The position numbers were made by a program, and so were the translations under genes. From sequence record PV588651.1: a stretch of 15,773 nt of DNA. One strand, 5' to 3'. Shown in pieces: positions 1 to 4,952 of the stretch. The notes beneath the pieces were generated by a model, which saw nothing but the letters and a program-made list of their open reading frames with translations, was not told the origin of the DNA and did no database searches. Positions within the stretch are counted from its first letter, which is position 1, and each line of letters begins with the position of its first letter. The DNA comes from Klebsiella phage AKM-TASP09.

Positions 1-232
1 AGAAAATAAAAAAAAAGAAGAGCGCTTTAAAAGAAGGCTTGAATTCCGCACCTTTGCGGGGCTTAAGATCCCAAAGGAGTCGACGAAGGCGGTTCCGGGC
101 CGTGAATTCGGCGTGTACTTCCATTGGCAGGGCAAATGGCGCTTTACAGTCATTCGCGGCTTTTACGTCACCTGCGACGGCGTTGACATTGACGACCACA
201 GCGGCGGGAACCAGGTTCACAACTTCAAATAG
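1..232 (+). CDS. hypothetical protein, 5'-truncated at window edge (frame 2, no in-window stop until TAG 230-232)
   Basis: Frame starting at position 2 is open from the window start to TAG 230-232 and reads a protein-like sequence (...HWQGKWRFTVIRGFYVTCDGVDIDDHSGGNQVHNFK). Its TAG stop sits inside the conserved cassette-boundary motif, exactly as for the six other cassette-terminal genes. The ORF-track entry 39..245 is in a different frame and overruns the motif. Confidence 0.5.
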   Translation, partial: ENKKKEERFKRRLEFRTFAGLKIPKESTKAVPGREFGVYFHWQGKWRFTVIRGFYVTCDGVDIDDHSGGNQVHNFK

Positions 233-304
233 CACTTTTTGTTAAAACACGATCGTGGTGGCTTGCTATAGTAACCCCATCGAAACGAACAACGGAGCAC
301 CACA
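230..304 (+). promoter_or_regulatory. Cassette-boundary element copy A: TAG-CACTTTTTGTTAAAAC (230-248), imperfect inverted repeat around TGcTATAGT (-10-like, 267-272), leader ...CGAAACGAACAACGGAG, ATG 305
   Basis: Seen directly. TTGTTA is at 239-244 and TATAGT at 267-272, a 22-bp spacer. TG is at 264-265 (extended -10). GGAG is at 294-297, 7 nt before the ATG. Confidence 0.7.
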
Positions 305-799
305 ATGAAATCTCGCGAATACCTCAACACCCTTAATGGCTTGATTTACTGGCTGGAAGGTGGCGAAGTGATGATGCACAAGCGCGAAGGAACAAAAGTA
401 ATGCGGTCGACAATGACGGCAGCAATCTTCTTCGAAAAGGTCGGCAACGATACGCTGATTCTGGTTGAGCCGGAGCCGGAGCAAAAGAGCATGACCATGA
501 ACGAATTCTCTAACTTCCTGGCTGGCATCGACAAAAGCACCACGACTGCAACCGCACAGACGGCCATCCAGGGCGGGGCCACCCACATTGCCATCGACGG
601 TAACGGCGACGTCTTCGCATTCAAGATGCGCCCGCGCCACTGCCTGCCGAAAGATGATGACGCAAATGATTACCTGGGCGAATGGCTTCGCGGGTCGGAG
701 CAGTACGGCCACATTGCGCGAACAGTCTGCTTCCTGGGCAACACTGGCCGCGAGCACCGCAACTGGCGGGAACTCTGCTTCCAGATCCCACAGCAATAG
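305..799 (+). CDS. hypothetical protein (164 aa), sole gene of cassette A
   Basis: GGAG sits 7 nt upstream. ORF of 164 aa ends with TAG 797-799, which is embedded in the next boundary motif. No recognisable domain. Confidence 0.7.
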   Translation: MKSREYLNTLNGLIYWLEGGEVMMHKREGTKVMRSTMTAAIFFEKVGNDTLILVEPEPEQKSMTMNEFSNFLAGIDKSTTTATAQTAIQGGATHIAIDGNGDVFAFKMRPRHCLPKDDDANDYLGEWLRGSEQYGHIARTVCFLGNTGREHRNWRELCFQIPQQ

Positions 800-867
800 C
801 ACTTTTTGTTAAAACGCAATCGGGGTGATGCGCTATCATTACCCCATCGAAACAGAGGAGCATAAAC
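797..867 (+). promoter_or_regulatory. Cassette-boundary element copy B: TAG-CACTTTTTGTTAAAAC (797-815), inverted repeat GGGGT(822-826)/ACCCC(841-845) flanking TATCAT (834-839), leader ACCCCATCGAAACAGAGGAG
   Basis: TTGTTA at 806-811 and TATCAT at 834-839, a 22-bp spacer. The 5-bp inverted repeat encloses the -10-like hexamer. GAGGAG at 855-860, ATG at 868. Confidence 0.7.
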
Positions 868-1080
868 ATGATCGGCAACCATAACAACCCACTCAATTCA
901 GCATTTCACCGTCGCGCGGTAGAGCAACACTTCCACGCGCTGAAGGTGGTTTGCAACGAGATGAATCTTATGCTTGACCTGCCGTCATGGGATGCGCAAC
1001 TGGAAGATTACTATGATGGCCTGCGCGCTAAACGGGATGGCATTATTACCCGCCTGCGCCTGGCTGGTATGTTCTTATAG
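868..1080 (+). CDS. hypothetical protein (70 aa)
   Basis: GAGGAG lies 7 nt upstream and the gene ends in TAG. It is the first gene of cassette B. Confidence 0.65.
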   Translation: MIGNHNNPLNSAFHRRAVEQHFHALKVVCNEMNLMLDLPSWDAQLEDYYDGLRAKRDGIITRLRLAGMFL

Positions 1081-1091
1081 GAGAAACAAAA

Positions 1092-1352
1092 ATGCAACAA
1101 TTCGAATCTCGCGGCAAGACCTACAACCTGCCAGACACCGCTACCCACGCCGCACCTGGTGCATGCGTCGGCTTGTACTTTAAGGATGGCGATAGCTGGT
1201 ACTTCATGGGTGATGTGATTGGGGATGTAACGGTAACGCCGAAGAAATGCGGATTACTCCTGGGCTTTTACGATCACGACGTGGTGGAGTTGAAGCCAAA
1301 GCGCGTACCGTTCGCCTTCTGGAATAAAATCAAAGGGGCGCTGTTCAAATGA
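1092..1352 (+). CDS. hypothetical protein (86 aa)
   Basis: AGGAG at 1079-1083 overlaps the upstream stop, 8 nt before ATG 1092. Confidence 0.65.
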   Translation: MQQFESRGKTYNLPDTATHAAPGACVGLYFKDGDSWYFMGDVIGDVTVTPKKCGLLLGFYDHDVVELKPKRVPFAFWNKIKGALFK

Positions 1353-3258: not shown

Positions 3259-3434
3259 GCAAGAAAATGATTGCGCTGTATTGGGTTCTTTTCCTGGGTG
3301 GCCTGGTGGTCGCCAAAGAAGATGGCTGGCAAATGATCGGAATGATGATGGTTATCATCGGGGTAAGCCGCCTCTCTGAGATTAACGGCTTCCGCCGTGG
3401 TCGCCGGGCCGCATTCACTGGCGACAAAGAATAG
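3255..3434 (+). CDS. small hydrophobic (2-TM-like) protein, 59 aa, absent from the ORF track
   Basis: Strong GAGGTGA RBS lies 5 nt upstream and an ATGA overlap links it to the upstream gene. Translation MSKKMIALYWVLFLGGLVVAKEDGWQMIGMMMVIIGVSRLSEINGFRRGRRAAFTGDKE has two hydrophobic segments. Ends in TAG 3432-3434 inside boundary copy E. Confidence 0.6.
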   Translation: MSKKMIALYWVLFLGGLVVAKEDGWQMIGMMMVIIGVSRLSEINGFRRGRRAAFTGDKE

Positions 3435-3514
3435 CACTTTTTGTTAAACCTGCCGTAACGTCATTTGGTAAAGTGGCGTTACTGAAGCGAAACAAACCAA
3501 TCAGGAGTTACACC
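3432..3514 (+). promoter_or_regulatory. Cassette-boundary element copy E: TAG-CACTTTTTGTTAAAC, inverted repeat GTAACG(3455-3460)/CGTTAC(3477-3482) flanking TGgTAAAGT (3469-3474), leader GAAGCGAAACAAACCAATCAGGAG
   Basis: TTGTTA at 3441-3446 and TAAAGT at 3469-3474, a 22-bp spacer. TG at 3466-3467. The 6-bp inverted repeat has a 16-nt loop. Confidence 0.7.
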
Positions 3515-3724
3515 ATGAATGACCACATTATCGACCTGTTAAGCATGCTGGCTGAGGATACCGTAGCCGTCATCGAGCTTGAGGACGGAACCGAACTTCA
3601 GATCGAGGTTCCCAGCGTGCGATTCTGCGTATCCGGCGGCGAGCATTCCGAGCGCTCAACCGAAACGGATCTTGACTACGCGACCCACTTACTATGCCTG
3701 AACGCGATCGAGGAGATCCGCTAA
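3515..3724 (+). CDS. hypothetical acidic protein (69 aa; the ORF-track start 3473 lies inside the boundary element)
   Basis: CAGGAG lies 8 nt upstream of ATG 3515. The leader is homologous to that of cassette G. Confidence 0.6.
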   Translation: MNDHIIDLLSMLAEDTVAVIELEDGTELQIEVPSVRFCVSGGEHSERSTETDLDYATHLLCLNAIEEIR

Positions 3725-4158
3725 TGAACACAATCAAACTGAAATGCGTGTCAGTCGAGTCGCTCGTTAGCATCTCCTGTAAGCCTGGCGATATCATCAC
3801 TGCCAGCCGGGATAACGAATTCTCATGCTGGCACTTCGACGGATACTACCTGGATGATGATCTGGTGGTTCGCGGCATATTCGGTGAGTTCGCGCGGTTC
3901 GAGGTAGCGAAGCGCAAGACCGATCGCAAACTGGTGGTTCGCGCAATGTGCATCATCGCCCGCCAGTATGGATGGACTGACGCAGGAGTTAAGCGCGTCG
4001 GCAACTACAAAACCGTCAAGGAGTGGGCGCGGGATTGGGCCGCATTCTACACCGACGAAAAAGGCGAGCTTCAGCACGATATCAGCGAGTACCTGGAGGA
4101 TTACAGTCGTGGCGATGCCGTCCGCGAGTTCATGCAGGCAGAAATCGACGCCCTATAG
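3724..4158 (+). CDS. hypothetical protein (144 aa)
   Basis: TAATG overlap with the upstream gene and GAGGAG 9 nt upstream. The ORF-track start 3694 would overlap the upstream gene. Ends in TAG 4156-4158 inside boundary copy F. Confidence 0.65.
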   Translation: MNTIKLKCVSVESLVSISCKPGDIITASRDNEFSCWHFDGYYLDDDLVVRGIFGEFARFEVAKRKTDRKLVVRAMCIIARQYGWTDAGVKRVGNYKTVKEWARDWAAFYTDEKGELQHDISEYLEDYSRGDAVREFMQAEIDAL

Positions 4159-4229
4159 CACTTTTTGTTAAAACAACCTTCCGGGCCTGCGGTATAGTAG
4201 GCCCACACCAACCAAATGAGGATACTAAA
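4156..4229 (+). promoter_or_regulatory. Cassette-boundary element copy F: TAG-CACTTTTTGTTAAAAC, inverted repeat GGGCCT(4183-4188)/AGGCCC(4199-4204) flanking TATAGT (4193-4198), leader CACACCAACCAAATGAGGA
   Basis: TTGTTA at 4165-4170 and TATAGT at 4193-4198, a 22-bp spacer. The 6-bp inverted repeat has a 10-nt loop. Confidence 0.7.
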
Positions 4230-4874
4230 ATGCTGACCATTAAAACCATTGCTTTCCCGGCACGCTTCTACACCAATCCCGATAATCGTGGCGAGTTCAT
4301 CGACTACAAAGACGACAATTCAAAAGGCAAGTGGTTCGATGGCGGTGAAAGCAATATCCCGCTGGGCTACTTCATTTGCAAGCATAACGTATTCAACAAG
4401 GGCAACGTCCCGGAGCGACCTTACCAGTATGCTACTCTCATGGGATCGGCTATTGCATGCCCAACAATCAAGCAGGCTCTGGACTACGCAGTGGAAACTG
4501 CTCACAACATGTTCGGTCGGAACGAGTCTCGCGGGATTGTGAATCGCGCCATCGTCCACGGCTACGGCGAGCCGCAGGAGTTGAGAATCCTTCCCGGCGA
4601 AATCAAAGCGACCAAGATTAAGGCTGGCGGATTCGAAGTGCGCCGCGACGGCAGTGTGCTGATTAACGATGCTGTCATTCGCGGGGAGGTTTACGCAACT
4701 ACCTTCAAGGAGAAAGATCGTATCAAAGAGCTTGAGGAGCAGGTTGATTTCCTGACTGGTCAACTCGAAGCGGTATCAAAAGCCATGAGAAGCAACGGTG
4801 AAAACGTCGTCACTCACGCCAAGGTGTTGCGTCAAATGGCCGACGCACTGGTTAATATCTGGCGCGGCGAATAA
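4230..4874 (+). CDS. hypothetical protein (214 aa) with a C-terminal coiled-coil-like segment; sole gene of cassette F
   Basis: ATG 4230 is preceded by GAGGA 8 nt upstream. The ORF-track start 4023 would run through the boundary element and the upstream gene. Ends TAA, followed immediately by the TAG of boundary copy G. Confidence 0.65.
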   Translation: MLTIKTIAFPARFYTNPDNRGEFIDYKDDNSKGKWFDGGESNIPLGYFICKHNVFNKGNVPERPYQYATLMGSAIACPTIKQALDYAVETAHNMFGRNESRGIVNRAIVHGYGEPQELRILPGEIKATKIKAGGFEVRRDGSVLINDAVIRGEVYATTFKEKDRIKELEEQVDFLTGQLEAVSKAMRSNGENVVTHAKVLRQMADALVNIWRGE

Positions 4875-4952
4875 TAGCACGAATTGCTAAACCTTCCGCA
4901 AGGGCATTTGATATAGTGCCCTTATTGAAGCAACCAATCAGGAGATAACGAA
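4872..4952 (+). promoter_or_regulatory. Cassette-boundary element copy G: TAA-TAG-CACGAATTGCTAAAC, inverted repeat AGGGCA(4901-4906)/TGCCCT(4917-4922) flanking TGaTATAGT (4912-4917), leader GAAGCAACCAATCAGGAG
   Basis: TTGCTA at 4884-4889 and TATAGT at 4912-4917, a 22-bp spacer. TG at 4909-4910. The 6-bp inverted repeat has a 10-nt loop. Confidence 0.7.

Follow-up and report, generated by a model that had tools for sequence, protein, structure and literature searches.

MarA, SoxS and Rob are bound as monomers to an asymmetric site, the marbox, through a pair of helix-turn-helix (HTH) elements, one of which reads GCAC and the other AAA seven bases away. A consensus for the MarA/SoxS/Rob site has been published (AYnGCACnnWnnRYYAAAY), and the Grainger laboratory has searched for marboxes with the pattern gcannwwntgnnaaa. 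In class II promoters a forward marbox overlaps the -35 region with its centre between -36 and -55, and at the Klebsiella pneumoniae micF promoter RamA is bound at approximately -41, with CACT-7X-AAA. In T1-like phages, a 2024 re-annotation of phage TLS described a 21-nt direct repeat, aaATAGCACnnnTTGnTAAAA, with 18 intergenic copies (DR1-DR18) that are oriented with transcription, lie approximately 76 nt before start codons, fall into T, G and A subtypes and are also present in T1, Rtp and Rogue1; only three sigma70-like promoters were identified, and a stoperator-like site, an enhancer site and an UP element were offered as possible functions of the repeat (PMC11447400). Here a 15,773-nucleotide stretch of Klebsiella phage AKM-TASP09 (record PV588651.1, the whole of which is referred to as the window) was analyzed. 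Seven units that each head a cassette of small genes carry this repeat and, as judged from sequence alone, have the sequence and architecture of class II marbox promoters.

Positions 23-15725 of the window share 90-98% identity with siphophages of the genus Webervirus (Drexlerviridae) such as KOX1, Alina and K6PH25C3, identifying the window as a Klebsiella T1-like phage of this genus. In KOX1 the region of the array is the rightward arm, in which small early genes lead into the terminase and head genes. All seven co-oriented units listed in a first-pass annotation of the window were recovered exactly: TAGCACKWWTTGNTAAA is present without mismatch on the plus strand at 230, 797, 1958, 2558, 3432, 4156 and 4875, with 0.07 copies expected by chance and none of 200 shuffles reaching eight matches. 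A single mismatch distinguishes an eighth copy, which is located on the minus strand (12986-13005). The expectation of a further cassette upstream of the window is supported by relatives, which carry at least one more unit there (KOX1 43216). All seven window units fit aaATAGCACnnnTTGnTAAAA and have their ATG codons 72-84 nt after the TAG of the motif. They are identified on this basis as Webervirus copies of the published T1-like repeat, an element already in print, in a paper that contains neither the marbox, the fixed 18-bp gap, the spacer hairpin nor the capsid-promoter placement of the reverse copy described below (PMC11447400). The repeat is therefore known. For its reading as a class II marbox, for the hairpin and for the arrangement at the capsid promoter, the searchable literature gave no precedent, an absence that is no proof of novelty.

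Genome-wide searches allowing up to three mismatches gave 22 matches in KOX1 (1.99 expected) and 25 in T1 (3.21 expected), and good copies number approximately 18-20 per genome (approximately 18 in KOX1 and 20 in T1). These are co-oriented with the genes downstream of them on both arms, including primase, two helicases, methylases and many small open reading frames (ORFs). The element was initially likened to a boundary specific to an array of moron cassettes, a view that does not hold, as the same element heads early and DNA-metabolism units on both genome arms. A search with the 76-nt unit returned 618 phage records, all of them T1-like phages of approximately 44-54 kb from Klebsiella, Escherichia, Shigella, Salmonella, Citrobacter and Enterobacter, a few of the records bearing implausible host labels. 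These enterobacterial hosts possess MarA/SoxS/Rob-type regulators.

A set of 128 unique units was assembled from the window, KOX1, T1 and IMG/VR contigs; the IMG/VR pattern scan returned mostly single chance hits, and multi-copy contigs alone were kept. The best -10-like hexamer stood at an identical offset in 102 of the 128, and 102 carried A-11 and T-7, the two bases on which the logo described here was filtered. Motif positions -1 to 19, counted from the T of TAG, read A-T-A-G-C-A-C-n-(A/T)-(A/T)-T-T-G-(C/T)-T-A-A-A-(A/C)-C with approximately 2 bits at most positions (n = 102); A is found at motif position -1 in 95 of the 102 and at -2 in 75, and there is no conservation upstream of promoter position -52. 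In all seven window units the hexamer begins at a distance of exactly 37 nt from the T of TAG; it reads TATAGT in four and TATCAT, CATAAT or TAAAGT in the others, each with A-11 and T-7. G-14 is present in 90 of the 102 units and T-15 in 45, with a full TGn in four of the seven window units, such that the units carry an extended -10 element (TGn directly before TAnnnT), which needs no -35 hexamer. The predicted start, 7 nt past the hexamer, is a typical start dinucleotide and is also conserved (C-1 in 81/102, A+1 in 85/102), and is followed by a CA-rich leader, GGAG and an ATG approximately 75 nt after TAG. A standard sigma70 scan called none of the seven window units, which have no -35 hexamer at 16-18 bp, in agreement with the mere three sigma70 promoters reported for TLS (PMC11447400). 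The fixed-distance -10, conserved start site, CA-rich leader and Shine-Dalgarno sequence bear out the first description of the units as promoter modules, and it is very probable that they are promoters.

Absent from the candidates first listed for the conserved block was the marbox, which the block fits closely and in the class II position. The pattern gcannwwntgnnaaa was matched without mismatch by all seven window units (0.28 expected) and, in the full set drawn from T1, KOX1, the window and IMG/VR loci, by 96 of 102 unique units. Of these 102, 91 fitted the 20-nt marbox consensus with no more than one mismatch, in most cases at the last Y, and none of 20,000 column-permuted phage motifs did as well (maximum 15). 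Agreement extends to the positions that vary, since phage-variable positions 7, 13 (C/T) and 18 are n or Y in the marbox consensus and positions 8-9 are A or T only, as W demands. The earlier view of the conserved 5' half, as asymmetric rather than the operator of a dimer, is upheld, and the accompanying claim of no dyad symmetry was essentially right, although a weak 5-bp pseudo-dyad (TAGCA/TGYTA) is present there. Recognition by a monomer with two HTH motifs accounts for the asymmetry of the marbox and would explain the missing dyad. Two further exact matches to the marbox pattern, at 11799-11813 and 11931-11945, lie inside a 376-amino acid head protease/scaffold gene; the second is also conserved in KOX1 (4947). 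At the unit spacing no -10 accompanies either match, and both may be chance occurrences.

Other identities considered for the block or unit were set aside. Read as a sigma70 -35 element, TTGNTA is too distant, with 22 bp between it and the -10. The consensus for sigma54 promoters is TGGCAC-N5-TTGCW; here the GG-to-GC spacing is 8 rather than 10 bp, and TAGCAC is without GG. Compared with the integration host factor (IHF) consensus WATCAANNNNTTR, TAGCAC-NNN-TTG lacks one base and departs from the core at two others, while an element resembling boxA/nut (rrn boxA being TGCTCTTTAACAA) would lose its CTTT core in the GAATT variants. A dimeric operator TAGCA-N5-TGCTA would have only 4-5 symmetric pairs, the partner of G3 being C in 57% of units, and is retained solely within the alternative of a phage-encoded activator weighed below. 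A promoter for a single-subunit phage RNA polymerase was also rejected, there being no such gene annotated in T1 or KOX1 and none according to the TLS authors (PMC11447400).

The geometry of the units is that of host class II promoters. Relative to the predicted start, the marbox spans approximately -50 to -31 (centre approximately -40.5), and the gap between marbox and -10 in the phage units is exactly 18 bp. In the Escherichia coli MG1655 genome, micF has the marbox ACAGCACTGAATGTCAAAAC, 18 bp and TAGAAT, with the annotated RNA 5' end 8 nt further on, and the corresponding phage unit reads ATAGCACGAATTGCTAAAAC, 18 bp, TATAGT. At fumC, 17-18 bp separate a perfect forward marbox from the -10 region. 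No marbox with two or fewer mismatches was found in the 200 nt upstream of inaA. The marRAB marbox, which is reversed and of class I, is ATGCCACGTTTTGCTAAATC, with the segment TTGCTAAA in common with the phage block. The host class II promoters micF, fumC, lpxC P2, lpxL P1 and rfaY P1 thus resemble the phage units in having a forward marbox in or over the -35 region, a centre at approximately -41, 18 bp to the -10 and CACT-7X-AAA. However, host marboxes are degenerate, whereas a virulent phage of 50 kb carries approximately 18-20 nearly identical, near-consensus copies, and the phage units differ further in their added extended -10 and in their overlap with an upstream stop codon and an RNA hairpin. 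Middle promoters of T4 are likewise without a -35 and have a specific, activator-read box upstream of a sigma70 -10. The T4 MotA box is centred at approximately -30 and requires the phage proteins MotA and AsiA, while the phage-unit box, centred at approximately -40.5, matches a host activator site; no MotA or AsiA homologue was noticed in the phage.

The minus-strand copy within the window occupies a different setting. This reverse marbox, TAGCACGAATCGCTAAAC (12986-13005), is without its own -10 at the unit spacing and fills the spacer of a plus-strand site that reads as a sigma70-type promoter (12981-13008; TTGACC at 12981-12986, 16 bp, TATTCT at 13003-13008), overlapping both of its hexamers. 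The gene downstream, with its ATG at 13048, is the major head protein in the KOX1 annotation. The arrangement TTGAC(C/G)-N-[reverse marbox]-TAT is also present in KOX1 (6000-6030), T1 (15060-15095) and another T1-like contig (approximately 350-400), and therefore in three genera, and in TLS DR7 likewise lies on the opposite strand in the head region (PMC11447400). Lacking a -10 and facing a terminator, the reverse copy is not a promoter. Host marboxes that overlap core promoter elements are in a repressing configuration, and a reverse marbox in the spacer would let the same factor repress the late capsid promoter. Use of the site in both orientations and positions favours a DNA-binding protein over a polymerase contact. 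In T1 and that T1-like contig, a hairpin and T-run lie between the capsid promoter and the start codon, a possible attenuator that is absent from the window.

Taking these features together, each unit would be a complete promoter for host sigma70 RNA polymerase, of the class II design used by MarA, SoxS and Rob and, in Klebsiella, also RamA. The near-consensus 20-bp marbox A-T-A-G-C-A-C-n-n-W-T-T-G-Y-T-A-A-A-A/C-C would substitute for the -35 hexamer, and the extended -10, (T)GnTAnnnT, 18 bp downstream would set a start at C-1/A+1 and so a CA-rich leader of approximately 26 nt with its Shine-Dalgarno sequence. The activator, a host monomer with two HTHs that may be the constitutive Rob or one of the stress-induced proteins MarA, SoxS and RamA, would place one HTH on GCAC and the other on TAAA, and would recruit or retain RNA polymerase via sigma region 4 and the C-terminal domain of the alpha subunit, as in the RamA-micF complex. 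No AraC/XylS-like protein emerged from T1, KOX1 or the window: with MarA, SoxS and the N-domain of Rob as queries, tblastn and phmmer gave a best E of approximately 0.15, and Pfam found no AraC-type domain in 20 array ORFs or in KOX1 gp28 and gp35, making a host protein the parsimonious binder. The sequence match, its geometry and its conservation, from which we infer binder, activation and start site, make activation by a host MarA-family protein (MarA, SoxS, Rob or RamA) probable, if only narrowly so.

Several points weigh against this interpretation. Uniformity among the phage copies greatly exceeds that of host marboxes, and there are extra invariant positions (A2, T10 and A-2) on which the consensus makes no demand; these could point to a more specific, phage-encoded binder. 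In unstressed cells little MarA, SoxS or RamA is present and, in the absence of inducers, Rob is mostly inactive; a virulent phage would seem to run a risk in relying on such activators. With an extended -10, the promoters may need an activator very little. T1-like phages also encode a conserved HTH regulator (KOX1 gp28, T1 ST23) that is expressed from a near-consensus sigma70 promoter of its own, as would suit a classical activator cascade of phages. The searchable literature yielded no binding, start-site mapping or host-mutant phenotype for the Drexlerviridae units and no link between marboxes and phages. As to the figures, the 100% conservation of A-11 and T-7 in the logo is an effect of the filter and not a result, and the covariation values given below are inflated by pre-selection.

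An activator encoded by the phage itself, acting on the same 20-nt block, is unlikely but is the alternative with most to recommend it. Its best candidate is the HTH regulator encoded between primase and helicase (KOX1 gp28, T1 ST23, phrog_2856), which would be expressed from an activator-independent immediate-early promoter and then switch on approximately 18 delayed-early or middle promoters, the likeness to a marbox being convergence or coincidence. The two proteins are 54% identical, and such a cascade is the usual logic of phages. Their promoter, TTGTCA-16-TATAAT (KOX1 26936-27027; T1 36431-36525; P57/DR11 in TLS), is one of the only three sigma70-type promoters of TLS (PMC11447400). A repeat copy adjoins and overlaps this promoter region, as autoregulation predicts, and the -10 overlaps that of the marbox promoter of the helicase on the opposite strand, so the divergent regulator and helicase promoters should be mutually exclusive. 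The uniformity of the repeat and the weak pseudo-dyad TAGCA-N5-TGYTA point the same way. However, gp28/ST23 has a single Cro/YdaS/MerR-like HTH and no AraC-type double HTH, and a homodimer would want a symmetric site, whereas invariant C6, T10, A16 and A17 have no symmetric partners, only 57% of units pair invariant G3 with C and every copy has one orientation relative to the -10. A phage activator also leaves unexplained the base-by-base fit to the marbox, variable positions included, that no permuted motif equalled. A further gene with an HTH, KOX1 gp35 (31439-32569; T1 ST16, 40822-41955), annotated as a DNA repair exonuclease, has an N-terminal HTH resembling sigma70 region 4 (PF08281, 28 bits, above the curated cut-off in gp35) fused to a metallophosphoesterase-like body.

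The remaining explanations dispense with an activator altogether. That the block is an UP-like or displaced -35-like contact for the alpha C-terminal domain or sigma region 4, boosting an extended -10 without any factor, is improbable, even if the idea was raised both by the TLS authors (PMC11447400) and in the first-pass annotation, which had preferred a polymerase or UP-element type of site, or a recombination junction, to a dimeric operator. The A/T-rich centre (TTTTT, GAATT or AAATT) falls at -43 to -39, the position of the proximal UP subsite, much as UP elements at strong promoters (rrnB P1, T5 and T4 early promoters) are A/T-rich at approximately -40; TTGNTA resembles a -35 hexamer, and an extended -10 renders a -35 dispensable. 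Unlike degenerate, A/T-rich UP elements, though, the units have invariant G/C at four positions (G3, C4, C6 and G12, approximately 2 bits each), extend to -31 and show nothing conserved from -52 to -60, which favours base-specific recognition over a generic UP element. TTGNTA also lies beyond the reach of sigma region 4, and the reverse copy in the capsid promoter spacer would go unexplained. Less probable still are stoperator-like sites, another suggestion of the TLS authors (PMC11447400), at which a repressor would block elongating or initiating polymerase as in mycobacteriophage L5. The L5 stoperators are many asymmetric intergenic sites of approximately 13-20 bp oriented with transcription, as the units are, and a few late-region copies have no -10 (T1 8363 and 25022) or are reversed inside a promoter. 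Yet L5 stoperators are repressor sites of a temperate phage and are unphased to a -10, whereas the units head genes rather than trail promoters, and their exact 18-bp phasing to an extended -10 and conserved CA start are traits of a promoter, not a roadblock; T1-like phages are virulent, with no repressor known and none annotated in T1 or KOX1. Barely credible is a primary role as recombination junctions with secondary promoter-like features, for which a fixed -10 phasing, start dinucleotide or RNA hairpin would not be needed.

The evidence on recombination itself is divided. The expectation that units persist while the genes between them differ was confirmed by comparison of T1 with the window, in which the units (60-85 bp, 75-88% identity) are the sole DNA similarity in the array. 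Some Webervirus indels abut units exactly, as in mfs at 228 and in KOX1 and mfs, where the gene after unit F (4230-4874) is replaced; in Klebsiella phage Domnhall_N97 (301-3440), a duplication or insertion of approximately 2.9 kb that repeats the homologue of window 23-301 ends at units. About as many breakpoints, however, fall at other, internal boundaries between genes (1079/1086, 1352/1562, 3003/3085 and 3523/3711), and the suggestion of a recombination junction holds only to this extent. The units probably serve as homology patches as a by-product.

The stretch between the conserved block and the leader had been described as approximately 20 variable nucleotides. Its sequence does differ between units, but it is not featureless, as a covarying hairpin of the sense-strand RNA is present there. 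With G-U pairs admitted, 69% of units, compared with 14% of shuffles, had a stem of 7 bp or longer between motif positions 20 and 58, the stems occupying two sharp registers. Class B comprises approximately 33 units, whose GC-rich stem, frequently capped by a GNRA loop, falls inside the 18-bp spacer, with the U-rich -10 and discriminator coming next; several of these are annotated in T1 as rho-independent terminators. Class A comprises approximately 45 units, among them B, C, E, F and G of the window. Here the two arms lie on either side of the -10, with the 3' arm running as far as -1, and there is no U-tract after the stem; a terminator scanner called none of the window class A hairpins. Strong hairpins are formed by five of the seven window units. 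Compensatory changes were assessed in 24 class A units pre-selected by register, in which 85% of cells pair compared with 36-49% in slid controls and seven of ten pairs show changes on both sides. Among interior non-Watson-Crick pairs, G-T outnumbers A-C by 22 to 2 (p = 4e-5), indicating that the helix is selected on the sense strand, as RNA, and disfavouring a DNA cruciform or single-strand promoter. No Rfam family matched the window at the gathering score. As the predicted start lies just after the helix, the hairpin would form only in transcripts reading through from upstream, placing it at the 3' end of the upstream message, where class B would terminate transcription and class A might protect against exonucleases or insulate the promoter. 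This inferred role is the weakest part of the model.

Overlap of the units with stop codons can be accounted for by geometry. Six upstream ORFs and the truncated ORF at 1-232 terminate at the TAG of the motif, as had been observed, and at 4872-4877 a TAA is followed by the TAG. Among 93 units with a long upstream ORF, 63 end at TAG (motif positions 1-3), 13 at TAA (14-16) and five at TAA (7-9), and the last sense codon before TAG is AAA, GAA or CAA in 54 of the 63. Genes packed tightly against the promoter would have their upstream ORF end within the marbox. TAG is the only stop possible there because the marbox, through the invariant G at its position 4, fixes G at the third position of the codon, and the leading A(A) of the marbox would account for a last codon of nAA. 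Gene packing and the invariant marbox G thus explain the use of this rare stop.

The seven plus-strand units, designated A to G, are laid out as follows. In unit A (229-307) the marbox (229-248) includes the TAG (230-232) that ends the truncated ORF; the -10, TATAGT (267-272), comes after TGc, the predicted start is A279, a weak hairpin occupies 253-283 (-9.9 kcal/mol, z -2.0) and the ATG is at 305. Unit B (796-870; marbox 796-815) ends ORF 305-799 with its TAG at 797-799 and has TATCAT at 834-839, a predicted start at A846, a class A hairpin at 822-845 (-14.2 kcal/mol, z -3.3) and an ATG at 868. The marbox of unit C (1957-2033) is a GAATT variant (1957-1976), with TAG at 1958-1960 ending ORF 1751-1960, TATAGT with TGg at 1995-2000, a predicted start at A2007, a class A hairpin at 1983-2006 (-11.4 kcal/mol) and an ATG at 2031. 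Unit D (2557-2632; marbox 2557-2576; TAG 2558-2560, ending ORF 2243-2560; CATAAT 2595-2600; predicted start A2607; ATG 2630) has only a degenerate spacer hairpin (CCCGG..TCGGG) in the class B register (-6.5 kcal/mol, z 0.2). A 12-bp class A hairpin (3455-3482; -15.3 kcal/mol, z -4.2) is found in unit E (3431-3517; marbox 3431-3450), where TAG at 3432-3434 ends ORF 3255-3434 and TAAAGT with TGg at 3469-3474 precedes a predicted start at A3481 and an ATG at 3515. Unit F (4155-4232; marbox 4155-4174) ends ORF 3724-4158 at TAG 4156-4158 and has TATAGT at 4193-4198, a predicted start at A4205, a class A hairpin at 4183-4204 (-17.3 kcal/mol, z -3.8) and an ATG at 4230. Unit G (4874-4955), again with a GAATT-variant marbox (4874-4893), has the TAA of the upstream ORF at 4872-4874 and then TAG at 4875-4877, followed by TATAGT with TGa (4912-4917), a predicted start at A4924, a class A hairpin at 4900-4923 (-13.5 kcal/mol, z -4.2) and an ATG at 4953.

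Other features of the region were also noted. In KOX1 the rightward early arm opens at 42289-42317 with an ordinary TTGACG-17-TAGTAT promoter, corresponding to TLS P01, after an A/T-rich region laden with repeats; with this promoter at the head of the arm, the first early transcription unit needs no marbox. Before the small terminase gene, at window positions 6910-6960, a strong terminator (AACCCGCTTCGGCGGGTT plus T7) is followed by the extended -10 TGgTATACT, a further overlap of terminator and promoter from which the marbox is absent. PHROGs and many GenBank records label the 70-amino acid ORF at 868-1080 a transcriptional regulator or GntR-family protein; neither a Pfam HTH nor a relative in the PDB was found to support DNA binding, and the label looks unsupported. 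ORF 5222-5797, in the last array cassette, has a C-terminal dATP/dGTP pyrophosphohydrolase domain (MazG-like, PF04447). The first 22 and last 48 bases of the window (1-22 and 15726-15773) have no match in relatives, do not align to KOX1, are A/T-rich and of low complexity, and are probably not phage sequence.

Among coliphages and Klebsiella phages, the T1-like group is one of the commonest, and its members are widely used in therapy collections; each genome has only approximately three recognisable sigma70 promoters. A broader proposal, which remains tentative and which we hold to be rather doubtful in its entirety, is that the T1-family phages (Drexlerviridae) have wired nearly all of their early and DNA-metabolism promoters (approximately 18-20 per genome) to host MarA, SoxS, Rob or RamA. 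Expression would then be boosted by bile salts, salicylate, oxidants and antibiotics, signals that also induce intrinsic antibiotic resistance, the same factor would hold the capsid promoter off, and marbox-rich genomes, replicated to hundreds of copies, could titrate the factor, blunting the mar/sox/rob response and flipping early to late expression. If the narrower reading of the units as class II marbox promoters holds, phage-antibiotic combinations would be affected through the altered phage expression that inducers of MarA, SoxS or RamA bring about, Mar-type resistant mutants could differ in their susceptibility to these phages, and engineering would gain compact, portable promoters in the form of the units. 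The family would then provide a clear case of virulent phages exploiting a host stress and antibiotic-resistance regulon as an activator of their own promoters.

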